Assembly: GCA_964016885.1 (NCBI GenBank)
Contig: OZ024750.1
Coordinates: forward strand, 54,560,001-54,624,000
Source of the DNA: Eledone cirrhosa
Taxonomy: Eukaryota
DNA: 64,000 nt
Direction: 5' to 3'
Below the pieces are notes generated by a model. The model worked only from the letters and a program-made list of their open reading frames with translations, was not told the origin of the DNA and ran no database searches. The stretch's first letter is position 1, and every line of letters starts with the position of its first letter. Of this stretch, positions 2,595 through 61,920 are shown one piece after another. A program made the translations under genes and the position numbers.

Positions 2595-2599
2595 TACAG

Positions 2600-3154
2600 A
2601 TAATTTAATATATCTAGTAACATAAGCGCAGAGATGTACGCCAATGCCAGCAAATACACAGGTTATGTCATAGTACCTAGGTGGTTCAATGCAGGAGGAT
2701 GCAGAACAATAATATAAAAGACGTAAAATAAGAAAATAAAAAAAAAATTTTTTTTTAAATTAACTTACTTAAATTTTCACTCCAACTAATTAGTTTCTGC
2801 AAAGGGATAAAGACAGTTATGTAATGAACTGTTGAGAATTTCATTGTGTCATCAGGGAGGTCTATTCTCAGCCAAGTCTCCAGGCAATGCGCGGACACTG
2901 GGGACTCGTATAAAAATAATAATAATTCGGTAAATGGAACAGCTATCGAGGACTGGATTCCAAGCACTGAAAATTCTCGCTGCCACTGGTCAAATGGCCG
3001 ATTCTAAAGAATCAATCACGTGACACTGAGGCTAGTCGGTAGTTCATTACGTAACTGTCTTTATCCCATTGCAGAAACTAATTAGTTGGAGTGAAAATTT
3101 AAGTAAGTTAATTTTTTTAAATTTTTTTTTAAAATTTTCTTATTTTACGTCTTT

Positions 3155-3155
<1 letters not shown>
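2600..3155 (-). mobile_element. Non-coding HHR-bearing element (family A) with an inverted terminal segment
   Basis: About 2712-2830 and 3041-3155 are reverse complements; homologous to 54251-55370; flanked by (TA)n. Confidence 0.75.
2780..2859 (-). ncRNA. Type I hammerhead ribozyme motif, extended stem II
   Basis: Minus strand: cucc CUGAUGA cacaaug...cuuugca GAAA cuaauuag UU ggag. Stem I cucc/ggag, palindromic stem III, GUU triplet; stem II is imperfect in this copy. Confidence 0.65.
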
Positions 3156-3185
<30 letters not shown>

Positions 3186-4150: not shown

Positions 4151-4207
4151 TGTTGATTTAAAACTGCACTATCCACAAGTGTTTTTAACCTTCATATCAT
4201 GTCCTCC

Positions 4208-4278
4208 TATTTTATCTGATGAAAACACAAATGTTATTGCATGATGATATTTGTTTTTGAAATGCGCATAATAAAATA
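4208..4278 (+). ncRNA. Type I hammerhead ribozyme motif in a ~160-nt insert within (TA)n
   Basis: uauuuuau CUGAUGA [aaacacaaauguuauu gcau gaugauauuuguuuuu] GAAA ugcgca UA auaaaaua. Perfect 8-bp stem I, long stem II, palindromic stem III. Confidence 0.8.
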
Positions 4279-4353
4279 TATGGAACTCATTTAACCTTCT
4301 GTTGATCTTATATATATATATACATATATATATATATACATATATATATACAT

Positions 4354-4990
4354 AAGTAAAAATTATCGAGAATCGAATTTCAGCTCAGGAATTAATGAGA
4401 ATCACTTCCGAGTTGTGTGGCAAGCGCTCGATAATTCATATGAATTAGAGCTTACAACTTACGTTAAAGGCCAAACACACTGAGATGGTGGTTAAACTAA
4501 TCATCCACACAGCGAAAATTCGATCGCCTATTTCGGGTCAAACAGATATACGGATATAAAAATATAAATTGTTGAAAGCTTACCCGGACCCCTGGAAAGA
4601 TGGTAAAGCCCAGTATTTGGATTTCTGGGGCTCCATAAGTCATTTACTGTCCACTTACATAAAGGATGTTAGGTTTCTGGTATCATGACTGAACTGGGAG
4701 TACGCGTTATCAACGGGATTCAGTTCGAAAGACCACATAAATGTGTCTGTAACTGACCCCACGTGGGGTTCAGCAAGGGAGGCAACACCTATATTAGGCG
4801 AATGAATTCAGTTGTGTATAATATTGCGAAAATGCAAAATATCACAAATCGAATAAAGCTCTCGACAGAGTGGTTAAATATAACAAAGCTATTCAGCAGT
4901 CAATAGAATAGAGCAAAAACAATCAATAAAATTAACTGGCCAATAGCTGGACTCTGGAGATTAATACAAGTAAAAATTAGCGAGAATCGA

Positions 4991-4996
<6 letters not shown>
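4354..4996. mobile_element. Terminally redundant, hairpin-rich ~614-nt non-coding element in (TA)n
   Basis: AAGTAAAAATTA(T/G)CGAGAATCGAATTTCA at 4354-4382 and 4968-4996; many internal hairpins. Confidence 0.6.
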
Positions 4997-6593: not shown

Positions 6594-6654
6594 TATATAT
6601 ACATATATATATACACATATATATATATATATATATACATATATATATACATAT

Positions 6655-7333
6655 AAGTATGTATGTATACGTACATACATATATGTATACAGACGTACAG
6701 TAGCATGCATATATATATATATATATACATATATACATACAGGCACACATATATATATGCATGCTACTGTACGTCTGTATACATATATGTATGTACGTAT
6801 ACATACATACTTACATTTAAGTAAGTGCCGTACTAAGAGTGAGAAATGAAATTTCGTTTCATTCTATTCCATTTATCGTTTTCGGTGCGCCTGACCGACT
6901 GAACTCACACGATATGCAAATTAGGCTGCTCAGCCGTTAATTTTCATAAGGAAAGTATATACTTTCGAACGTTCAACCATCTGGCAGAAGGGTATACGGT
7001 GCTGACGATAGCTAACAAGCTTGAAACTAGTACATCGTTCCTGTGTCAGTGTTGAATAAAATGGTGACGTGGTTGCCTTAACACCGTACGGCATAAATCA
7101 GGCTGTCCGTTTGTTTACAAACGAACAAAGCGAACATTATAATAAATGTTCGCTAAACTGATACGTGCATATATATATGTGTGCCTGTATGTATATATGT
7201 ATATATATATATATATATGCATGCTACTGTACGTCTGTATACATATATGTATGTACGTATACATACATACTTACATTTAAGTAAGTGCCGTACTAAGAGT
7301 GAGAAATGAAATTTTGTTGCATTCTATTCCATT

Positions 7334-7336
<3 letters not shown>
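6655..7336 (+). mobile_element. Non-coding HHR-bearing element (family B): 460-nt monomer, ~120-nt terminal direct repeat, inverted 5' segment
   Basis: GTAAGTGCCG at 6821 and 7281 (460 nt apart); about 6655-6760 is the reverse complement of about 7167-7272; homologue at 19482-19998. Confidence 0.8.
6997..7037 (+). ncRNA. Minimal type I hammerhead ribozyme
   Basis: cggug CUGACGA uagcu aaca agcuu GAAA cuag UA caucg. Palindromic ACUAGU stem III, GUA triplet. Confidence 0.8.
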
Positions 7337-13348: not shown

Positions 13349-13845
13349 GGTATATATTGAGTTAGGAACTCAAAATAGTCTCTTACAACAAAATAGCTCT
13401 AAGAAAGAGTTATATCTGAGCCGTATATTATAATAGAATATAAAAGAAAAAACAAACACAGATATATAGATATATGTGTTTAAATCGTAAACCTGGCTGC
13501 TATTTTTAGTGGTGTGGGTTTGTGAGACTCGCTAGGATGCCATGTGCGCTGTTTTATATTTTATATATAGTATACATAGATGTGTCTAGGATACTAATTC
13601 ATCATCCACTGATGAGCTTGGATTAGTATATCTATTCACAATTAACTTTGTGAAACAACAACAAATTGTCTGGGTGATTGGTAGTTACCACAATTCCGGT
13701 TTGTATTTATTTTATTTTCTTAATTTTCTTTTCGAAATATATATAATAAAACATATACTTTGATTATGTGAATGTCTTCATTTATTAATATTCTGAATAA
13801 TATTAATAACTCCAGAAAACGTACTGTAGAGTGCTTTTAATCTAT

Positions 13846-13850: not shown

Positions 13851-13934
<84 letters not shown>

Positions 13935-14232
13935 ATATATATATGTGTGTATATATATATATATGTGTGTATATATATATATATGTGTGTATATATATAT
14001 ATATGTATGTATATATATATGTATGTATATATATTTCGTTTCTGAATTTGTTTAGCAAGATTCTTTATCTGAAATCGTGTTTTGAAACCGATATTGTTAT
14101 ACTTTGGGAGGGTCATGTTGCCAATAAGAAACACACGCACCAGTTGCTTTCACTTCAATTTATTATATATTTATAAATTTATAAATTTCTGGTTGGTTGG
14201 TTGGTTCCACAACCAGATAGTTGTTTATATAT

Positions 14233-14277
14233 AGTCATAGTTCTTTCGTCACACACTCTGTGACCTCTTCAGTGACT
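14233..14277 (-). ncRNA. Minimal hammerhead ribozyme in PLE pseudo-LTR (canonical core)
   Basis: aguca CUGAAGA g gucaca gagug ugugac GAAA gaac UA ugacu. Confidence 0.8.
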
Positions 14278-14761
14278 GGGGATTCCTTTCTTTGTTTCTG
14301 TGACTCTCCTTTGTTCTGTCCTACGCCATTTTGTTTCTGTGTGTGTGTTGTGTGCTCAGTCTGCGCATGCGCCACATCCGGGTGTCTGTGTGTGTTCATG
14401 TTCATTTATTTATTTGTTTATTTACATGTTACTGGTTGGTTGTTTGTTCTATGTGTGTGTTTTCATTTTGTCCTTAATTGTAAGTTGTGATGTTGCCTGT
14501 AGCTTGAAACTAGTACATTGTTCTTTTGTCAGTGTTGAACAAAAGGGCAACGATGGTTGCTAAACACTGTACGGCTTAATTCGGGATATTTGTTTACAAA
14601 CAAACCGAGCATTATAATAAATGTTTGGTAAATCCATACGTACATATATATATGTGTGCATGTATGTATATATATATACATACTACTGTACGTCTGTATA
14701 CATATATGTATGTACGTATACATATATATATATATATATGTATAAATATATATATATATAA

Positions 14762-14849
<88 letters not shown>

Positions 14850-14986
14850 ATACTTTGGGAGGGTCATGTTGCCAATAAGAAACACACGCACCAGTTGCTT
14901 TCACTTCAATTTATTATAATAAATTTATAAATTTATAAATTTCTGGTTGGTTGGTTGGTTCCACAACCAGATAGTTGTTTATATAT

Positions 14987-15031
14987 AGTCATAGTTCTTT
15001 CATCACACACTCTGTGACCTATTCAGTGACT
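14987..15031 (-). ncRNA. PLE hammerhead copy with variant core CUGAAUA
   Basis: Same fold as 14233-14277 but with G8>U; identical variant at 19170-19214 (+). Confidence 0.6.
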
Positions 15032-15216
15032 GGGGATTCCTTTCTTTGTTTCTGTGCCTCTCCTTTGTTCTGTCCTACGCCATTTTGTTTCCGTGTGTAT
15101 GTTGTGTGCTCAGTCTGCGCATGCGCCACATCCGGGAGTCTGTGTGTGTTCATGTTCATTTATTTATTTGTTTATTTACATGTTACTGGTTGGTTGTTTG
15201 TTCTATGTGTGTGTTT

Positions 15217-18200
15217 TCATTTTGTCCTTAATTGTAAGTTGTGATGTTGCCTGTTCCACTCATATTTTCTATTTAATTTTGGTTGTAATTCTTTTATGTT
15301 TATTGCCTCTGTAATTTGTCTAAACATTGCGTCTTTTCTGTGTGTAGATTCTATTTTTATTTCTATGTTCTCTAATTTACCCTTATGTTCTATTTTAGCA
15401 TGTTGGTAGAGTACAGATGATTCTTTACTATCTTGAAGGTCTCGCCAGTGTTCATTTATCCGTTCCCCTACACTACGAGCTGTCTCACCTATGTACACTA
15501 TATTTTTGCCTCTACATTGTCCTTCAGTACATCTTATGCTATACACTACATTTCTAGTTTTACAGTTAATATGGGGGCTTATTTTACAGGTTATACATTT
15601 CTTATCTATACATGAGGGTCTTTGGAAAGGGTATGTCTTGCTAATAAGTGTTTTTACGGAGGTACCTGGTCTTTCTACTATCTTAATATTGAGTTTATGT
15701 TTATTTGGGGCCCTTCTAAATTTGTAAGCTAATTCACCTCTAGGGGTTGTATCGATGAACATTACACTCTGGTATTTATTGCTATCATACCATGAGTTTA
15801 TTCTATTAGCCTTATTCCTAGTTCTTTCTAGTCTATTCCAAAATTTGCTCCTATACAAGGGGCAGGTCCCATTTATGTCATTATTTACCATTTTTTCCCA
15901 TTTAGTTCTGGCTCCTCTATACACTCTGATTCTATCTCTCTGATTGTAGCCAGAGAACTGCATACGGTGGATGAAGTGTTGTATGTGTCTCTCTAGTTCT
16001 TCGGGGTTGCACATGCGGGACACGTTTCTCATCACCCGTACCAAATCCGCAATCAGTATGTTGATTTTGGTATGGTCCGAAACGGCCGAGTTTCGGTGGA
16101 TCAGATGTTTGGAAGTCATCGGTTTGGCATAATGGGAATGGAGGATTTGTTTTTTATTATTAATGGTATCTAACCAGAGCTCTGTGTCTAGTACAGGTAA
16201 TCGATGGTTGGGGTGTTTACTTGGGTAGTCTATAGTAACTCTAATGCTCTGGTGGATGGAGTTAGCTATTTGCTGGATGCTTTCCATTGTGTTTTTCTCT
16301 AGTTCCTGACTGTTCTCTAGTGAGGGTGTCTTAACTACGATGTTTATATCATCAACGTAGCGGGAGTACATTATCAGGGTTAAGGGGTCTTCTAATTGTT
16401 CTTTAAGTTTAAGTTTAAGTCTACTGTCCCACCATACCATGAATAAGTTAGCTATGTCGCCTGCAATGCTAACACCAATGGCTGCTCCTTCCTCTTGGAC
16501 ATATGTTTTTCCATTAAATTTGAACATATGTTCCTTAAGGGTTAGTTTTATGCTGGCCCCTACCGCATGTGCAATCATTTTCTTTAGTTCATCGTGGTTT
16601 TCGGGTATCCGTATGGCTCTGGTCCACCCATTCCATCTGTCTGTGTGGGTTTTCTTATTCATTGAGGTAATGGTAGGTGGTCTGCCTCTTGCTGGTCTTG
16701 TAGGGCACAGGTTGCTAAGGTCATATGTGTCTAGGTAATTATTACTATAGGTAAGTTTAAGTAGGAGTCCCAGCTCACTGGTATCAATCCCACGGAACTC
16801 AACATTGCTCTCACTGATCATTTCTACGCATTTCTCCACAGTAAAATCCACGTCAATAGATGGATACAGGGACACAACATCCATACTACCTATTATGCAG
16901 TTTGTTAGGTCCCTAGATCGGTTACTCCCGCCGATTCTGCAGAGGAAATCCTCCGTGCTGTCACATACATCTTGGGACATTTCGATGATGGGGCGTATGA
17001 TCAAGGAGAGGAAGTAGGACAGTCTGTAGTTACTAGCAATGTTAGCTCCACAGACTGGCCGTGTTGGTGGTCCTGCGACAGGGTCACAGCCCGTTTTATG
17101 GTCTTTTCGAAGCCCATACAACGCCGGCACGTCATTGTTCCAGGCCTGGAAGTTGTTGGCAGTCCTTTTGTTGGGCTTCATTATATTCGTCCACATCACC
17201 ATATGGGCATTGAGGGCTTTTTCTCTATCCTCATGCTCCTGTGGTGTTACCTCTCTTGTGTTAGTGATGTGCGGTTGCATTGCCTGGATGTAGTTTGGCA
17301 GGCTGTCAACCGACATTCTGCCAGACTTGTCTGTTGGAAAGCATGCTATCTCTCCATTACGCGAGCGCTGCATGAGCTTACGCAAGCCATTTGCAGATTT
17401 TTCTCCCAGTTGCTGGGCCTCCATTCTATTATGCTTCTTGCTATACTGTTCTATAATATTTCTAAGCTCGGATCTAGCTATACTAAATTGTGCTTTTGTT
17501 TGTTCATCGACCTGCGACGGCAATTGCGTGCGTTTGTTAAATGGTAGAGTCGTGGCGTGGACTCGTCGCAGGTCGAACGATTTATCGGAGGGATTATAAA
17601 ACGTAGAGTTCCAGGCTGCTGCTTTATGTGTACTAGTGCTATTGTTATTGTTAGTTGTGTTGTTTCTATTTCTATTTCCACCAACAGCCTTATGGTTGTT
17701 TCTATGTCTCTCATAGTTACTCCTGTCTCTTTCCACTGGCTCATTGTTGTTATCTACCCTATTTTGTGTGTCTGTGTGTTCGTCTTGGTTATTTTCTTTG
17801 TCCTTAGTCTCCCTTCTCCTTTTAATCCTATTGCTTTCCCTTATTTCTGTGATTTCTGTGCTACTGTCATTACTTGTTCTCTGTGTCTGTGTGTTTGTTA
17901 AGATTGTGGTGGTGGAAGGCATTGAATGTGTGTGGGTTGTTGTTGTTGATGTGTGCTGTTGTTGATGTGTGTTGTTGTCTCCGTGTGCGTTATTATTGTT
18001 GTGTGTGTTGTTTGTGTCTGTGTGTCTGTTGTTGTTTCTGGGTATGTTGTTGTTGGTGTGTGTGTTGTTGTTATTGTTGTTTGTGTCTGTGTGTCTGTTG
18101 TTGTTGGGATGTGTGTTGTATATGTGTATGCGTATATTGTTGCTTTTGTTTTTGTTTTTGTGGCTCCAGTGTAGTTTTGTAAATGATTTTTCTATTTCTG

Positions 18201-18255
18201 ACAGACAACTAATCATATTTACCTTCTTGAATGTCGCAAATCGCGGGGCAGACAT
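15217..18255 (-). CDS. Penelope-like reverse transcriptase plus GIY-YIG endonuclease
   Basis: PTDKSGR, LYGLRKDHK, TRPVC, SMDVVSLYPSI, QEEGAAIG, RYVDD, LPVLD, CxxxxCxxC, NVVYSIRC...YIGET; 1012 aa open. The true reading frame likely continues upstream across a frameshift near 18246. Confidence 0.93.
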   Translation of the reverse strand: MSAPRFATFKKVNMISCLSEIEKSFTKLHWSHKNKNKSNNIRIHIYNTHPNNNRHTDTNNNNNNTHTNNNIPRNNNRHTDTNNTHNNNNAHGDNNTHQQQHTSTTTTHTHSMPSTTTILTNTQTQRTSNDSSTEITEIRESNRIKRRRETKDKENNQDEHTDTQNRVDNNNEPVERDRSNYERHRNNHKAVGGNRNRNNTTNNNNSTSTHKAAAWNSTFYNPSDKSFDLRRVHATTLPFNKRTQLPSQVDEQTKAQFSIARSELRNIIEQYSKKHNRMEAQQLGEKSANGLRKLMQRSRNGEIACFPTDKSGRMSVDSLPNYIQAMQPHITNTREVTPQEHEDREKALNAHMVMWTNIMKPNKRTANNFQAWNNDVPALYGLRKDHKTGCDPVAGPPTRPVCGANIASNYRLSYFLSLIIRPIIEMSQDVCDSTEDFLCRIGGSNRSRDLTNCIIGSMDVVSLYPSIDVDFTVEKCVEMISESNVEFRGIDTSELGLLLKLTYSNNYLDTYDLSNLCPTRPARGRPPTITSMNKKTHTDRWNGWTRAIRIPENHDELKKMIAHAVGASIKLTLKEHMFKFNGKTYVQEEGAAIGVSIAGDIANLFMVWWDSRLKLKLKEQLEDPLTLIMYSRYVDDINIVVKTPSLENSQELEKNTMESIQQIANSIHQSIRVTIDYPSKHPNHRLPVLDTELWLDTINNKKQILHSHYAKPMTSKHLIHRNSAVSDHTKINILIADLVRVMRNVSRMCNPEELERHIQHFIHRMQFSGYNQRDRIRVYRGARTKWEKMVNNDINGTCPLYRSKFWNRLERTRNKANRINSWYDSNKYQSVMFIDTTPRGELAYKFRRAPNKHKLNIKIVERPGTSVKTLISKTYPFQRPSCIDKKCITCKISPHINCKTRNVVYSIRCTEGQCRGKNIVYIGETARSVGERINEHWRDLQDSKESSVLYQHAKIEHKGKLENIEIKIESTHRKDAMFRQITEAINIKELQPKLNRKYEWNRQHHNLQLRTK

Positions 18256-18438
18256 AATACAGATAACTCATCATTATCTATTATTGTGTTACCGTATATA
18301 TTTGTGTTGTTGTTGATGTTGAACTCATCCGTTAATGAAGTGTCGGCCATATTTATACCGTCAACCACGATGAACTGAAGAAAATTATTGCACATGCGGT
18401 AGGGGCCATGGTATGATAGCAATAAATACCAGAGTGTA

Positions 18439-18984
18439 ATGTTCATCGATACAACCCCTAGAGGTGAATTAGCTTACAAATTTAGAAGGGCCCTAAATAA
18501 ACATAAACTCAATATTAAGATAGTAGAAAGACCAGGTACCTCCGTAAAAACACTTATTAGCAAGACATACTCTTTCCAAAGACCCTCATGTATAGATAAG
18601 AAATGTATAACCTGTAAAATAAGCCCCCATATTAACTGTAAAACTAGAAATGTAGTGTATAGCATAAGATGTACTGAAGGACAATGTAGAGACAAAAATA
18701 TAGTGTACATAGGTGAGACAGCTCGTAGTGTAGGGGAACGGATAAATGAACACTGGCGAGACCTTCAAGATAGTAAAGAATCATCTGTACTCTACCAACA
18801 TGCTAAAATAGAACATAAGGGTAAATTAGAGAACATAGAAATAAAAATAGAATCTACACACAGAAAAGACGCAATGTTTAGACAAATTACAGAGGCAATA
18901 AACATAAAAGAATTACAACCAAAATTAAATAGAAAATATGAGTGGAACAGGCAACATCACAACTTACAATTAAGGACAAAATGA
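18439..18984 (+). pseudogene. Inverted duplicate of the PLE GIY-YIG C-terminus
   Basis: Matches the C-terminal 181 aa of 15217-18255 except for three substitutions (P/L, P/S, G/D). Confidence 0.9.
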
Positions 18985-19362
18985 AAACACACACATAGAA
19001 CAAACAACCAACCAGTAACATGTAAATAAACAAATAAATAAATGAACATGAACACACACAGACTCCCGGATGTGGCGCATGCGCAGACTGAGCACACAAC
19101 ATACACACAGAAACAAAATGGCGTAGGACAGAACAAAGGAGAGGCACAGAAACAAAGAAAGGAATCCCCAGTCACTGAATAGGTCACAGAGTGTGTGATG
19201 AAAGAACTATGACTATATATAAACAACTATCTGGTTGTGGAACCAACCAACCAACCAACCAGAAATTTATAAATTTATAAATTTATTATAATAAATTGAA
19301 GTGAAAGCAACTGGTGCGTGTGTTTCTTATTGGCAACATGACCCTCCCAAAGTATAACAATA

Positions 19363-19441
<79 letters not shown>

Positions 19442-19481
19442 TTATATATATATATATTTATACATATATATATATATATAT

Positions 19482-19998
19482 GTATACGTACATACATATA
19501 TGTATACAGACGTACAGTAGTATGTATATATATATACATACATGCACACATATATATATGTACGTATGGATTTACCAAACATTTATTATAATGCTCGGTT
19601 TGTTTGTAAACAAATATCCCGAATTAAGCCGTACAGTGTTTAGCAACCATCGTTGCCCTTTTGTTCAACACTGACAAAAGAACAATGTACTAGTTTCAAG
19701 CTTATTAGCTATCATCAGCACCGTATACCTTCCTGCCAGTTGATTGAACGTCAGAAAGTATATACTTTCCTTATGCATATTAATAATGGCTGAGCAGCCT
19801 AATTTGCATATCGAGTGAGTTAATTGGCCAGGTGCACCGAAAACGATAAATGGAAAATATGAAACTAAATTTCATTTCTCTCTCTTAGTACGGCTGTTAC
19901 TTAAATATAAGTATGTATACGTACATACATATATGTATACAGATGTACAGTAGTATGTATATATATACATACATGCACACATATATATATGTACGTAT
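19482..19998 (-). mobile_element. Second family-B HHR element (~433-nt monomer plus ~85-nt terminal direct repeat)
   Basis: Repeat at about 19482-19566 and 19915-19998; body homologous to 6820-7170. Confidence 0.8.
19683..19723 (-). ncRNA. Minimal type I hammerhead ribozyme
   Basis: cggug CUGAUGA uagcu aaua agcuu GAAA cuag UA cauug. Confidence 0.8.
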
Positions 19999-36362: not shown

Positions 36363-36487
36363 GCGATATATACGATGACACATGTCCCAAAATTGAGAAG
36401 AACAATTTGGATTGTGAGTGTGTTGGTGGTGGACGGATCCTGATAGAGAATTCCAAGAAACATATACAGATATTTGGTTATTCTAAG
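36363..36487 (+). CDS. PHPT1: Internal exon of a 14-kDa phosphohistidine phosphatase (PHPT1/Janus-Ocnus family)
   Basis: ttgcAG|GC GAT ATA TAC...TAT TCT AAG|GTatgt; 125 nt; encodes DIYDDTCPKIEKNNLDCECVGGGRILIENSKKHIQIFGYSK, matching the family motifs DIYD, CECxGGGRI and I.(V/I)(Y/F)GYS. Confidence 0.88.
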
Positions 36488-47320: not shown

Positions 47321-47400
47321 CAGTATATCCCTTCCATATACTATACCGATTGTGTTTTGTTATTTCTGTTTACCTTTTACATACATACATATATATATAT

Positions 47401-47742
47401 ATCATCATCATCATCATTTCATTTTATGTCCACTTTTCCCTGCTTGCAAGGGTGGGACGGGAACTGATTCTGGCTTGATTTCTACAGCTGGATGCCCTTC
47501 CTAACACCAACCTCATTTACAGTGAGCGCTGGGTGCTTTTTTTGCCGTGGCACCTCCACGACCACTTTGCAGTGGAATGATAGGGACCCCAGTCCCTATC
47601 ATCTCATTTCTACAGCTGAGTAAACTGGAGCAATGTGAAATAAAGTGTCTTGCTCAAGGAAACAACACATCACCCGGTCTGAGAATTGAACTCACAACCT
47701 TTCGATTGCAAGGCCAATGCTCTAACCACTAAGCCATGTGCC
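47401..47742 (-). mobile_element. tRNA-head CORE-type SINE with RTE-derived tail
   Basis: TGGCTTAGTGG A box, GAGTTCAATTC B box, TCCTTGAGCAAGACACTT core, tail GGAAGGGCATCCAGCTGTAGAAA...(GAT)n; near-identical copies at about 55395-55715 (+) and 61258-61595 (+). Confidence 0.85.
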
Positions 47743-50569: not shown

Positions 50570-50954
50570 TATACACATATATAAGGGGTACAAAACTGCC
50601 ATGGTGACAAATATATTAAGTAAAGATAATACGGTTCACAGAACTCACTTAAAAAGATGAATTAAGGTATAGAAACCAACTATGATAACTATCAACATCC
50701 AGACAGTTTCAAAGTAGAATTGTTTCGCAATTCAGTAATGAGAAATATTGACCTCTTATTGCTTATCAATGGATGTCCAGATCAATACACTCATCACTAC
50801 TAAAATTCATTAGAATACTAAAAAGCACATGTGTTAAAAGAGGAAAGACACATGCCTATTCCGTACTGGTTTTATATAAGTGTCTTTCTCTCTTTACTGT
50901 ATTATAGAACAGAGCTATGTAATTAGAAAGTGAACAACACAATATATAACTACT

Positions 50955-51017
50955 CCATTACCAAGGTTTCAGGACCCTACACAATATTAACATACATCTA
51001 GTTCGCTCATCAGATAG
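50955..51017 (-). ncRNA. Type I hammerhead motif
   Basis: cuau CUGAUGA ... GAAA cc uu gg UA augg; a second, decayed motif (acaucca UUGAUAA ... GAAA cug UC uggaugu) lies at 50695-50776. Confidence 0.62.
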
Positions 51018-51399
51018 AAAGGTTATAAATATATGAAATTGAAAGTTGGAAAATATACATAAGAAAGAGTATATATAAAAATTATATAGAAAATCATAAA
51101 AAATAAGAAGCACGTGTACATACATACACATATACGAACATACGTATAAAAATATATTTATATAAAAATAAGAAATAAAAAAAGAAATAGAAATAAAAAT
51201 TAAATGGTCAGACAAGGCGATACAATATATACACACACACACTCTTACATATATACACACACAATCCTACATTCAGACACACTCGTGTGTGCGTCCAAAA
51301 AATAAATATGTCAAAATACCATGTGGATATACGCATATCCACACATACACACACATATATATATATACATATAAACTCAACTCTCTCCACTCCCTGCCA

Positions 51400-54130
51400 T
51401 CACCACCCATACTCATATCACCTTCAAACCTAACCCCTGTATCCCGTCACCTTCCACCCCCTTTCCTCTCCCCACCACTGAATCTGCACACGCTTTGCCC
51501 AAGCACCTTAACCCCTCCACCTCCGCCCCTTTCACTCCCACACGTCCCTGCACTGTAGTCACCATACCCCAGGACCTACCACTCTCCGAAGATGAGTGCT
51601 CCCTCCTCGTCCGTGGTTTGCGTTTTATACCAACCACATCTACCTGCGACGAGTTCCACACACGTGCCGATATTGAGGGCTTCCGTTGATTAAAGCTGAA
51701 AGATTTTTTTTCACACAGACGGATGACTTCAGTTGCCGGCTACCACATTGGACGCTGAGCTTTGGCCAGTTCAGTACCCTCGACTCCTTTGTTGATACTT
51801 GCCGGCGTACTGTGAATCGGTTCCATTTCCACCAGCATTCTCATCGCTCTAACATCACGCGGGCTGAGCTCTCTGCTCTTCGCAACCTTCGGCATCGCGA
51901 TGACATTGTCATCAAATCTGCTGACAAAGGTGGCACTGTGGTGGTTTGGAACGTTGACCTCCATAGAGCTGAGGCTCTCCACCAGCTTCACAATACCCTT
52001 TTTTACCGCCCTTTATCCTCCGACCCCACTCCTGGCTACCAACAACACGTGTCCTCCACTATCCACCAACTCACCTCCTCTCTCCTACCCCCACAGCCAC
52101 CAACCTTATTGTATGCACCCCTCGCACACCCACCATCTACTTCCTCCCCAAAAAACACAAACAAAATAATCCTGTCCGTCCTATCGTTTCCACGTGCAAC
52201 TGCCCCACCGAGATAATTTCTGAATATTTAGACACCATCCTCGCCCCGTTGGTCAGCAATCTCCCCTCCCACATCCACAATACCAATCATGCCCTTAGAC
52301 TCTTCATCAACTCCTTCTCCTTCCCTCCTGGTCCCACTCACCTTCTCTTTATCCTAGACATTACCTCTCTCTATACCGTCATCCCTCATGATGACAGCCT
52401 CCGCGCTCTCCAACATTTATTTAGATTTACGCCCTACCCCTTACCCCAGCACTACCACCCTTCTCAGTCTAGCTGAGCTTCTTCTGAGCCTCAATGGCTT
52501 TTCTTTTTTGGGTGAATTCTATTAGCAGGTCTCTGATGTAGTGATGGGAACCAGAATGGGTCCAAACTATGCCAACTTCTTTGTTGGCTACGTCGAAGCC
52601 CAGATCTTCTCCCAGTACGCTAGACCAACTCCTGAGCTATACGCTCGTTATATCGATGACTGTATCAGCGCCACCTCTCTATCACGAGAACAGCTCAACT
52701 GTTTTCTTTCTTTTGTCCAATCTTTCCATCCTGCTCTCACTTTCACCGACTCCGTCTGCGATTCTTCTGTTGCTTTTCTAGATATCTCTCTATCTATTAA
52801 TCACTCTCACCACACCCTCTCTACTTCCAACTACATTAAACCAACAGACTCCCAATCTTACCTCGACTTCACCTCTTCCCATCCAACCCACACCAAACAC
52901 TCCATACCCTATTCCCAATTCCTCCGTCTTCGTCGACTCTGTAGCCAGGACAACGATTTCGAAACCCATTCCCTTTGCATGGCTTCCTGCTTCATCCAGC
53001 GTGGATATCCCTCCACCTTGGTCCAAGCTGTTCTCACCCGCACCCGCGAAACAGACCGCACCACAGCTCCTCACCTCACCCTCTCACCTACCACCCCATC
53101 GCCATATCCTCCGTTCCTTCCGTATCCTCTTGTCTGACCCTGTCACTTCTCACTTTTTTCCAAACCCACCCATTACTGCTTTTAAGCGCTCCCGCAACCT
53201 CTTTGTTCGCTGTTCTTTTTCGTCCTCTCCCACAACTCCACCCGGCTCTCATCCTTGTTCCCGTTCCCGCTGCAACACTTGTCCCTTTATTTCCACCCTC
53301 ACCACTCTTACAGGCCCTAATGGATCTTTCCATATCCGCCATTCCTTCACCTGCATATCCACCCACGTTGTCTATGTTCCTCCGGTGTTCCCTGTGCCGA
53401 ACATTTGAATGACATATGACTCAGTTTGGATACTCCTGTCGCCCGTCATTTTTGTTCTCCTGGTCATTCTTCCCTACAGTCCTGGGTGTCCTTTTACATC
53501 ATAGATCACAGGCCTCATGCACCAGGATTGAACAAAGTCTGATTCACCGTCTTGGGTCCTATTCCCCTCTTGGACTCAACTCTAATACCCCGTACATTAT
53601 CATACCCCTAGATTCCTATGGCTTTCTAATGATCATTAGCAGCTTCTCTTACAACTAATACAGGCCGACTATATATGCTCACTCCACTTTTCCCTTCACT
53701 GCTCTGTATACACACATACACACCCTTATATTAACATACTTTTGCTCATAGTCTCATACTTACATGCACGCACACTCCTTTACTCACATATACACACACT
53801 TTTCTTCTTAGCTTCGTACGGACGTATAATAACACACACACACACACACACATGCATACGCATGTGTACAAGTATAGCTCTTTTTACAAAACAGATTTTT
53901 TTTTCTTCCATTTCAGGTAGACGCGCTCCATCATCCACTTTTCTAAAAAATAAATCATACACAAAACGCCAGCACCAACAGTTTTGCAAGAAATGTCAAT
54001 ATGAATTGATCTGTTATCTTTATCTAAAGACATTTTTTCCAATTCCAACTCACCCGTCCCCTCAATCTATCTTGTTTCTCATTCTTTCTTCTGATGAAGG
54101 ACTAGCGTCCGAAACGTTAAGACCCTCTTC
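51400..54130 (+). mobile_element. Decayed Penelope-like element, second lineage (Neptune-like)
   Basis: LSEDECSLLVRGLRFIP, IVIKSADKGG, LDITSLYTVIPH, MGTRMGPNYAN, RYIDD, KPTDSQSYL, IPYSQFLRLRRLCS, CSRSRCNTC, FTCISTHVVY; many frameshifts; HHR in the 3' region. Confidence 0.88.
54087..54122 (+). ncRNA. Minimal PLE-type hammerhead ribozyme
   Basis: ucuu CUGAUGA a ggac uagc gucc GAAA cg UU aaga. Confidence 0.8.
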
Positions 54131-54213
54131 CTGCTATATCAAGCGTTAACCTAATATATTCCTTCCATATACTGTACCGATTGTGTTGTTATTTCTGTAT
54201 ACCTTTTACATAC

Positions 54214-54250
<37 letters not shown>

Positions 54251-54423
54251 ATTGGTATATTTACCAACATATGCGTACAGATGTACACTAATGCTAGCAA
54301 ATACATAAGTTATGTCATAGTACCTAGGTGGTTCTATGCAGGGGGATGCAGAACAATTATATGAAAGACGTAAAATAAGAAAATTTTAAAAATTAAAAAT
54401 TAACTTACTTACTAAAATTTTCC

Positions 54424-54503
54424 CTCCAACTAATTAGTTTCTGTAATGGGATAAATATAGTTACGCAATGTAACTATCGAGAATTTATTACGTCATCAGG
54501 GAG
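54424..54503 (-). ncRNA. Type I hammerhead motif (monomer 1)
   Basis: cucc CUGAUGA c guaau...auuac a GAAA cuaauuag UU ggag, with an internal auaguuac/guaacuau hairpin. Confidence 0.75.
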
Positions 54504-54955
54504 TCTATTCTCAGCTAAGTCCCCAGGCAATGCGCGGACACTAGGAACTCATATAAAAATAATAATTCGGTGGATGGAACAGCTAGCGGGGACTGAATTC
54601 CATAGCACTGAAAAAGTTCACTGCCTCTGGTCAAGTGGCAGATTCGAAAGAATCAATCACGTGACACTGAGGCTAGTCAGTAGGAGTGGGGTGGTATTAT
54701 GACAAGAGCCTACTACCACTACAATGAATTAGCAGTGGATTTGGCAAGTTTGCTCAACAAATAAATAATTTGGAGATAAATATAGAGAATTGGTATATTT
54801 ACCAACATATGCGTACAGATGTACACTAATGCTAGCAAATACATGTTATGTCATAGTACCTAGGTGGTTCTATGCAGGGGGATGCAGAACAATTATATGA
54901 AAGACGTAAAATAAGAAAATTTTAAAAATTAAAAATTAACTTACTAAAATTTTCA

Positions 54956-55035
54956 CTCCAACTAATTAGTTTCTGTAATGGGATAAATATAGTTACACAA
55001 TGTAACTATCGAGAATTCATTACGTCATCAGGGAG
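54956..55035 (-). ncRNA. Type I hammerhead motif (monomer 2)
   Basis: Same fold as monomer 1, with stem II guaaug/cauuac. Confidence 0.78.
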
Positions 55036-55823
55036 TCTATTCTCAGCTAAGTCCCCAGGCAATGCGCGGACACTAGGAACTCATATAAAAATAATAATTC
55101 GGTGGATGGAACAGCTAGCGGGGACTGAATTCCATAGCACTGAAAAAGTTCACTGTCTCTGGTCAAGTGGCAGATTCGAGAATTCATTATGATGACAATG
55201 AATTCAAGTGGCAGATTCGAGAATTCATTATGATGACATAATGAATTCTCGATGGTTACATTGCGTAACTATCTTTATCCCATTACAGAAACTAATTAGT
55301 TGGAGTGAAAATTTTAGTAAGTAAGTTAATTTTTAATTTTTAAAATTTTCTTATTTTACGTCTTTCATATATATATATATATACACAACCTTTCGATTAG
55401 CTTTGCAATCGAAAGGTTGTGAGTTCAATTCTCAGACCGGGTGATGTGTTGTTTCCTTGAGCAAGAGACTTTATTTCACAGTGCTCCAGTTTACTCAGCT
55501 GTAGAAATGAGATGATAGGGACTGGGGTCTCTATCATTCCACTGTAAAGTGGTCGTGGAGGTGCCATGGCAAAAAAGCACCCAGCACTCACTGTAAATGA
55601 GGTTGGTGTTAGGAAGGGCATCCAGCTGTAGAAATCAAGCCAGAATCAGTTCCCGTCTCACCCTTGCAAGCAGGGAAAAAGCGGACGTAAAAATGAAATG
55701 AAAAATGAAAATGATATATTTATATATATATGAAAAATGAAATGATGATATATATACACACACATACACATAAATAGATAGATACAGAGAAAAAAATGTA
55801 AAGAACACACAATATTATATACA

Positions 55824-56131
55824 CTAGCAGAAAAACCACCCTTCGGGTGGTTTTCTGCAACCATGTGTAGTGTGTATATTGATATTATACGCAAGTATAT
55901 TAACATGTAGATATATTACATCAAATAAAATCGCCACCGGAAGTGTTGACACCACACACTCTCTCTTTCTATATATATATATGGTAGTTGAAGTGGTGGT
56001 GGTGGTGGTAACGATATACCGGAAGTGCAACTTTGAAAAGAAGTCAATTTTAAATTATTTATTTTTATGAAATTATTTTTGTTTACGAAATTTAGTAGAT
56101 AAATTATGTAATATTCATTATTTATTCAAAG
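55824..56131 (-). mobile_element. Helitron-like 3' end (GCAGAAAACCACCC hairpin plus CTAG); inverted relative at about 63040-63436
   Basis: Hairpin GAAAACCACCCGAAGGGTGGTTTT followed by CTAG|T; shared internal sequence with 63040-63436. Confidence 0.6.
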
Positions 56132-61150: not shown

Positions 61151-61920
61151 ATTCTTGCTTCTATTTCTAAATGGATACAGACAGGAAATATATTTTTAAA
61201 TGTCTACATTACAGTTTTTCCGGCCGCTACATTCCAGTGTGTGTGTATATATATATACACATGGCTTAGTGGTTAGAGCATTGGCCTTACAATCGAAAGG
61301 TTGTGAGTTCAATTCTCAGACCGGGTGATGTGTTGTTTCCTTGAGCAAGACACTTTATTTCACATTGCTCCAGTTTACTCAGCTGTAGAAATAAGATGAT
61401 AGGGACTGGGGTCCATATCATTCCACTGCAAAGTGGTCGTGGAGGTGCCACGGCAAAAAAAGCACCCAGCACTCACTGTAAATGAGGTTGGTGTTAGGAA
61501 GGGCATCCAGCTGTAGAAATCAAGCCAGTATCAGTTCCCGTCCCACCTTTGCAAGCAGGGAAAAGCAGACGTAAAATGATGAAAATGATGATGATATATA
61601 TATATACACACATACATATAAAAATATGTACATAGACAATTACGGAAAAGCATGCAAAAAAACCTTGCGTAAAGAAGCAATAATTAAAAATTACAGTAAA
61701 CGCTTATATTATCATAGGGCACAAAATATACAAAAAAAACTCTATGTATGCTTATATATACACACATGTATAACATGCAAGTCAGATACACACCTACATG
61801 TATAAACACAGATACACATACACACAGACAATAAGTAGGTGCACATAAGTATAAACACACACATATATATATACACATATACACACGGACATATACATAT
61901 GCATACATACACATAGTCAC

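Follow-up and report, generated by a model that had tools for sequence, protein, structure and literature searches.

A 532-nt repeat in the Eledone cirrhosa stretch analyzed here (64,000 nucleotides of contig OZ024750.1, hereafter the window) is probably a non-LTR retrozyme, a non-autonomous passenger of Penelope-like elements (PLEs) that was copied into TA microsatellites. The locus at 54251-55371 comprises 1.74 head-to-tail units, a junction and an inverted arm, and lies inside a TA microsatellite (Table 1). Tandem type I hammerhead ribozymes (HHRs), the lack of an ORF, low GC content, strand-specific folding and a conserved ribozyme core make the retrozyme the best reading of this locus, as an earlier note on the same DNA had proposed. 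The fold-back at the ribozyme core, which that note regarded as part of the architecture, is particular to this insertion; the other copy joins by a 3-4 nt overlap in stem II, so the core fold-back is not a feature of the family. The family has two loci in the 64-kb window (54251-55371 and about 2596-3159) and no third.

Table 1. Features of the 532-nt element and its diverged copy, numbered from the first letter of the window (minus is the RNA sense)
Feature	Position	Strand	Remarks
Diverged copy	2596-3159	-	less than one unit, one HHR, plus inverted arm; 84.5% identity over 440 nt
Left target	54214-54250		(TA)n then (GA)n, at 3' end of decayed Penelope-like element
Unit 1	54251-54788	-	full 538-bp unit, no ORF
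21-bp hairpin	54256-54305	-	ends about 5-10 nt before left outer end
HHR 1, type I (predicted)	54423-54504	-	CUGAUGA 54499-54493; GAAA 54441-54438
Predicted cut-to-cut monomer	54428-54959	-	532 nt
Unit portion occurring once in window	54684-54788	-	unlike flanks
Unit 2	54789-55179	-	5'-truncated, 0.73 unit
HHR 2, type I (predicted)	54955-55036	-	CUGAUGA 55031-55025; predicted cut after GUU 54960/54959
Junction stutter	55163-55238		35-nt direct duplication, period 41
Snap-back hairpin	55217-55252		perfect 16 bp, loop ATGA
Inverted arm	55231-55371	+	141 nt
Right target	55367-55383		(TA)n, then dispersed repeat 55396-55732

Analysis of the direct repeat revealed a start-to-start spacing of 532-538, which bears out the tandem monomers of about 535 nt described earlier, though just 1.74 units are present. 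The tandem closes on itself at 532-538 bp and contains no coding remnant. Over 397 aligned columns, 4 substitutions and 2 indels separate unit 1 from unit 2, and all six differences are private to one unit. This pattern is compatible with units that entered the locus without differences, as expected from a circle or a uniform array. The single-copy portion of unit 1 has no similarity to the flanks; the tandem is therefore not a local duplication of flank plus element. The left target and the internal unit boundary have ATATAGAG in common. The 21-bp hairpin near the left outer end folds in the diverged copy as well and may be a recognition signal for reverse transcriptase (RT).

On the minus strand each unit presents, in order, stem I, CUGAUGA, a 51-nt stem II domain, GAAA, CUAAUUAG, UU and stem I. 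The type I core (CUGANGA, GAAA, UH) is intact in both units, with 4-5 bp in stem I, 5-6 bp in stem II and 3-4 bp in stem III. In HHR 1, positions 54504-54500 form stem I with 54427-54423 (4 bp), the stem II domain (54492-54442) has 5 bp with a C opposite an A at its base, stem III is palindromic and the predicted cut follows GUU at 54428/54427. HHR 2 has a stem I of 5 bp and a stem II of 6 bp on the same C-A opposition. The two predicted cuts are exactly 532 nt apart, and the earlier claim of two HHRs at this distance holds for these minus-strand motifs (CUGAUGA at 55031 and 54499), which stand far above shuffled sequence. The window contains 10 type I HHR-shaped motifs compared with a mean of 0.21 (maximum 2) in 200 block shuffles. 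When at least 4, 5 and 4 bp were required in stems I, II and III, thresholds picked after the motif had been seen, two motifs were observed compared with none in any of the 200 shuffles. Comparison with the diverged copy revealed identity at 29/29 positions of the core and stems I and III, and at 345/409 positions elsewhere (one-sided Fisher p = 0.009); stretches of 26 and 32 nt outside the HHR are likewise identical. A search of the window with Rfam gave nothing at gathering score and 9 weak unrelated matches at E <= 10. This result is uninformative, since a textbook minimal HHR at 54091 was missed as well.

The stem II domain departs from the canonical type I HHR, in which 10.1-11.1 is paired between CUGANGA and GAAA and a short stem-loop II contacts loop I. 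A C stands opposite an A at the base of stem II in all four copies that have both sides. The first stem II pair is described as the most conserved after 15.1-16.1, and U-U as its best-tolerated mismatch (Perreault 2011, PMC3088659). Metazoan retrozymes are described with a 4-bp stem II and a short loop, and with G-C or U-U at its base; the 51-nt domain and the C-A found here differ on both counts, and a mismatch at this position is shared with axolotl HHR_Amex2. The palindromic stem III, an unpaired base after CUGAUGA and a possible pairing of loop II with sequence 5' of stem I are also found in minimal PLE HHRs and pseudoknotted HHRs (PMC4209133; PMC3088659). In contrast to their published consensus, with G10.1-C11.1 directly before GAAA, an A precedes GAAA here. 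The flank-loop pairing, a 7-bp pseudoknot of (U)GAGAAU with AUUCUC(G/A), can be drawn in 3/3 HHR copies and was not above controls (P = 0.08-0.40).

The earlier note had also read stem II as compensated between the copies (guaaug/cauuac versus caaug/cauug). One two-sided change (U-A to C-G) stands; against this, the first G-C pair is lost in the diverged copy, and covariation in the HHR was not above shuffles (303 of 500). The sequence guaaug/cauuac is that of unit 2, whereas unit 1 has GUAAUA. The caaug/cauug pair could not be upheld: the 3' strand of the diverged copy itself is CUUUG, stem II of that copy has one mismatch, and CAUUG comes from its inverted arm. Stem II of the diverged copy is absent from the constrained fold.

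Other HHR-shaped motifs were found in the window. Three of type I (4205-4280 and 13595-13680 on the plus strand, 50945-51025 on the minus strand) have a 36-nt stem II domain and a stem I of 6-8 bp. In the motifs at 13609 and 51013, which are unrelated to the 532-nt family, the 5' flank has a 10-bp complement in loop II, a possible pseudoknot; P was about 0.005 when local controls were used, and 0.007 and 0.05 with shuffles. Stem II of the motif at 4216 is long and regular.

Stem III of the 532-nt family is a 12-nt palindrome, with a predicted energy of +1.5 kcal/mol as a hairpin compared with -9.0 to -10.8 kcal/mol as a two-copy duplex. A stem III that is unstable in the monomer and stable as a duplex is a known sign of dimer cleavage, which these models would predict here, and such cleavage has been described for HHRs of this kind (PMC4209133; PMC7229834). 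The active HHR fold lies 2.5 kcal/mol above the minimum-energy fold. Cleavage would probably be slow owing to the C-A opposition at the base of stem II. On these models self-cleavage is plausible, and we lean slightly towards HHRs with a useful rate of cleavage; release of a unit-length RNA is predicted from the motifs, and ligation of the monomer into a circle has a little under an even chance. The tandem DNA already contains sequence spanning the GUU site, so back-junction reads alone cannot show circles.

A substantial minority possibility is that the repeat is a PLE passenger with an inactive or dispensable HHR, in which uncut read-through multimers serve as template and no circle forms. 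This account agrees with the retrozyme explanation in all but the cleavage step (step 2 of the mechanism given below). The C-A at the stem II base in every copy, the weak stem III and insertion ends lying away from the cut site would all fit it. Insertion by an anole PLE protein is reported to be unaffected by HHR mutations, with no reads ending at the cut site (PMC11167929), and 8/9 frog retrozyme dimers are reported as uncleaved in vitro (Li, Clavereau and Pollet 2026, bioRxiv 10.64898/2026.07.22.740005). On the other hand, the core is conserved at 29/29 positions against 84% overall identity and folding is strand-specific, and the HHR of an axolotl retrozyme, in which a U-U mismatch stands at the stem II base, is reported to cleave, better as a dimer, and to make circles (PMC7229834).

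The RNA expected from a retrozyme was examined by folding. The cut-to-cut monomer (532 nt, 36.7% GC) has a circular minimum free energy of -139.1 kcal/mol. Its z score is -7.65 on the HHR strand, where 0/60 shuffles were as stable, compared with -4.05 on the opposite strand. For 400-nt stretches the z scores were -6.9 on the HHR strand versus -1.7 on the other, and -4.05 versus -0.03 in the diverged copy. Control stretches (n = 27) had a mean z of 0, and 1/27 reached -5.2. Of the base pairs hit by substitutions between the copies, 10/22 and 12/25 are kept, a weak signal (P = 0.03-0.08) that is confined to the HHR strand. The longest ATG-initiated ORF in the monomer is 42 aa, ARAGORN found no tRNA in 53500-56000, and a search for PLE protein remnants with 120 PLE proteins against both copies gave one match (E = 0.022). 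The monomer thus lacks coding capacity, has a GC content below 50% and is predicted to fold into a stable self-paired molecule.

These properties are those described for metazoan non-LTR retrozymes, which share head-to-tail units with a type I HHR in each, a low GC content, lack of an ORF and a self-paired monomer (PMC7229834; Li 2026), as well as co-occurrence with PLEs and a weak stem III favouring dimer cleavage. The unit of 532 nt is longer than the 150-450 nt given in PMC7229834 and falls within the 51-972 nt of the Li 2026 preprint. Unlike known metazoan retrozymes, the locus has only 1.74 units plus an inverted arm, and cleavage and circles are predictions here. A plant-type LTR retrozyme was considered and rejected, the HHR being type I rather than type III and no 4-bp target site duplication (TSD) having been seen. 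Word searches of the literature found no cephalopod retrozyme, although supplements, subscription journals and repeat libraries may hold one. A search of sequencing runs with the stretch gave 15 rows, of which 12 share part of it; none shares half its words and no RNA run is among those listed. The four highest shares (0.20-0.46) belong to one study, which may be the source of the DNA, and the eight small shares are not counted as evidence. An exact-motif scan of viral contigs gave 0 matches. Six motif matches in metagenome contigs were dismissed as chance, with no similarity past 20 nt and no upstream CUGAUGA.

The diverged copy in Table 1 had been described as having similar outer ends and the same architecture. 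The ends are indeed common to both loci, but the copy contains less than one unit and a single HHR (CUGAUGA at 2855, predicted cut 2784/2783), and its inner junction is a different one. Its 119-nt inverted arm (3041-3159) begins at a 3-4 nt TAG/GTAG overlap located in the distal hairpin of stem II, with neither a UGAUGA fold-back nor a hairpin apex. Two consecutive tandem units with complete HHRs are present at 54251-55371 and not in the diverged copy, from which release of a monomer is impossible, as it has less than one unit and one HHR. The copy sits in (TA)n behind the 3' end of a LINE. This LINE has a reverse transcriptase ORF at 821-2494 on the plus strand; we take it to be CR1-like by its motifs.

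Both copies of the 532-nt element are flanked by (TA)n on both sides, and their ends coincide with the same two of the unit's five alternating-TA runs, at which the element grades into the (TA)n target. Apart from (TA)n, no TSD was seen at either of the 2 loci. Measured downstream from the cut, the outer ends are at 70 and about 180 nt, an offset of about 110 nt, and neither is at the cut site. Shared outer ends together with variable inner junctions would fit target priming at two preferred RNA sites followed by variable 5' truncation. If minus is the RNA strand, the template was an uncut multimer or a circle and never a linear cut monomer, because cut sites lie within the copied DNA, two in the direct units and one in the arm. 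An anole PLE protein is reported to start internally at two RNA sites, to nick and extend both target strands and to use uncut RNA in vitro (PMC11167929).

The long inverted repeats, the TA target and the common outer ends would also suit a DNA transposon of the fold-back or MITE-like kind that carries an HHR-like motif by chance. We consider this reading highly improbable. The left repeat begins about 110 nt inside the element, interiors and junctions vary between the copies, and the tandem unit and the HHR statistics would be left unexplained.

The arrangement would instead fit a PLE-mobilized sequence. Of the two parts of this layout, a partial tandem and an inverted 5'-truncated copy, the inverted arm is present at 2/2 loci and the tandem at 1/2. 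Insertions of EN+ PLEs are described with the same partial tandem and inverted truncated copy, a junction palindrome and two fixed outer ends (PMC3846280; PMC8557442; PMC11167929), a (TA)n target and reverse transcription that starts internally, downstream of the HHR. Direct pseudo-LTRs (pLTRs) with one inverted pLTR, a tail and a junction palindrome are described for PLE insertions in PMC3846280, and pairs of opposite-strand HHRs 100-700 bp apart in PMC4209133; cephalopod Naiads target (TA)n as well. Unlike EN+ PLEs, the 532-nt element has no RT-EN ORF, its end offset is about 110 nt compared with a PLE tail of 30-40 nt, and its inverted arm may stem from another template. Li et al. 2026 argue that metazoan retrozymes are non-autonomous PLEs.

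By these likenesses the unit could be the 3' UTR or pseudo-LTR of an autonomous PLE present in truncated pieces, and not an independent element, a reading we find improbable. The direct-plus-inverted layout is that of PLE pLTRs (PMC3846280), frog retrozymes are said to resemble pLTRs (Li 2026), and with a comparison confined to the 64-kb window there is room for a parent PLE elsewhere. Against this, the full 532-538-bp unit closes head-to-tail with no coding remnant, whereas a partial tandem of an autonomous PLE would have ORF sequence between its repeats. No similarity to the 532-nt unit was seen in the UTRs of either PLE family of the window. The 3' end of Naiad_Ovul, where GAAA precedes CUGAUGA, has by eye no evident likeness to it, and the two 12-nt stem III motifs are absent from the Craig 2021 (PMC8557442) supplement, where line breaks can hide matches.

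An autonomous EN+ PLE is present in the genome. The window carries an intact 1016-aa ORF (15217-18267, minus strand) with RT motifs and C-terminal GIY-YIG-type nuclease motifs, whose best match is an Octopus vulgaris protein (67%). The PLE around it (13860-19702) has a 99%-identical inverted duplication (14501-15794 and 18407-19702), which takes in 200 nt of a neighbouring HHR family and ends in stem II of that HHR. A second 3' end of this PLE (14091-14500) differs over its 410 nt by 6 substitutions and one indel, and has the better HHR core (14272). The neighbouring family is a second small HHR family, at 6648-7336 (plus), 19352-19998 (minus) and 14501-14845, with a unit of about 435-460 bp and cores at 7002 and 19718. 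It has U-U at the base of stem II, a palindromic stem III and a 3'-proximal hairpin of about 27 bp, and it lies in (TA)n as a partial tandem with an inverted arm (6648-6761) that matches the adjacent unit. A 22-nt hairpin motif common to this family and the 532-nt family was discarded, 26 and 75 of 300 shuffles being as high.

Other repeats were also noted in the window. A decayed Penelope-like element at 51677-54210 (plus), presumably Neptune-like by its motifs, contains the minimal HHR at 54091, and the 532-nt element sits in its 3' (TA)n. The dispersed repeat that adjoins the 532-nt element on the right (55396-55732) has two further copies (47384-47718 and 61258-61606; 93-96% among the three), which we assume to be SINE-like. 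A segment of about 640 bp between (TA)n runs (4354-4996), with a 29-nt direct repeat at both ends at a spacing of 614, resembles a further small element in partial tandem; an HHR scan of this segment found none. At 36365-36487 (plus) there is an exon-sized match to Janus/Ocnus (Pfam PF05005, E = 1e-10), so the window contains part of a host gene.

Analysis of the junction at 54251-55371 revealed an inverted arm that is 96% identical to unit 1. As had been noted, the arm starts at UGAUGA within a perfect hairpin (arms 55217-55232 and 55237-55252), the right side of which continues as the arm, and a short stutter precedes it (55163-55197 repeated at 55204-55238). From UGAUGA, lacking C3 and the 5' strand of stem I, the arm runs through the HHR and past the cut site to TATAT 70 nt beyond. 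The element switches strand at the palindrome TCGA, and the direct sequence reaches TTCGA at 55179. After 55179 the sequence follows the complement of the arm start, folds back at ATGA and then makes one more 41-nt round from the equivalent of 55163. Snap-back synthesis that made a TCGA overlap for end joining may account for this path, and we take the junction (55163-55252) to resemble synthesis-dependent microhomology joining. Fold-back chimeras occur in long reads, and the stutter and fold-back could in principle be a sequencing or assembly chimera. This is most unlikely: at 3 sites the arm is unlike either unit, and it ends where the arm of the 84% copy ends, followed by (TA)n and the dispersed repeat.

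The differences between the arm and the units bear on the template. At 54456 and 54491 the arm has the state of the diverged copy, where units 1 and 2 both differ from it, which hints at a second template molecule. The 54491 arm state is present in both stutter copies and so arose before joining. On this evidence, which amounts to 2 sites, one of them a CpG, derivation of the short arm from a second RNA molecule, at this locus only, seems marginally the better supposition. The pattern was absent from 2/2 neighbouring elements, where arm and own body differ by 2 substitutions in 114 and by 4 plus an indel in 950, as the self-priming model predicts (Arkhipova et al. 2013, PMC3846280).

Under that model the molecule that carries the direct units also gave rise to the arm, through self-priming or fold-back, and we hold this quite possible, if somewhat short of even. 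It would account for the perfect junction hairpin and for the arms that match their bodies in the two neighbouring elements; it is the published interpretation of PLE junction palindromes (PMC3846280), and a heterogeneous multimer or RT errors could yield the two differences. It does not explain why, at 54456 and 54491, units 1 and 2 agree with each other while the arm agrees with the diverged copy, nor a diverged-copy junction without a hairpin apex. Inverted pieces and junction palindromes are themselves a known feature of PLE insertions (PMC8557442; PMC3846280). No twin-priming account of PLE inversions was found in the literature, although supplements and subscription journals may hold one.

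For the non-LTR retrozyme that we favour, a mechanism in five steps can be proposed. In step 1 the minus strand would be transcribed as a multimer, and in step 2 the HHRs, with their palindromic stem III, would cut mainly as a double hammerhead. In step 3 a PLE enzyme would nick (TA)n, and the target 3' end would prime on short UA runs within the RNA, with a preference for two sites, 70 nt and about 180 nt downstream of the cut. In step 4 the long copy would run for 1.74 units, while the short copy would be primed from the opposite side of the target and would stop in the ribozyme. In step 5 the short end would fold back, copy 14 nt and anneal to the long end via TCGA, giving a head-to-head join; the stutter would be one repeat of the fold-back round.

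A more far-reaching combination of claims is speculative and, in our view, rather unlikely as a whole. The HHR would be an active new subtype whose long stem II domain, with C-A at its base, is held against the 5' flank of stem I by a pseudoknot; other long-loop HHRs of this genome (13609, 51013) would belong to it, and current descriptors would miss it. The locus would directly record that Penelope-type inverted repeats can arise by the head-to-head snap-back joining of two separately primed cDNAs from different RNAs.

As a retrozyme, the 532-nt repeat adds a likely cephalopod example to a known kind of element, a modest advance. Two consequences could weigh more. If HHRs with stem II domains of 36-51 nt and a mismatched base do cut, such ribozymes are undercounted in surveys of animal genomes, and a retest of the 'half-core' motifs described from Naiad PLEs would be worthwhile. 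The origin of PLE inverted repeats is stated as open in PLE papers. Small, diverged passengers present in many copies make this origin testable from genome sequence, by comparison of the subfamily alleles of the arm with those of the direct units.
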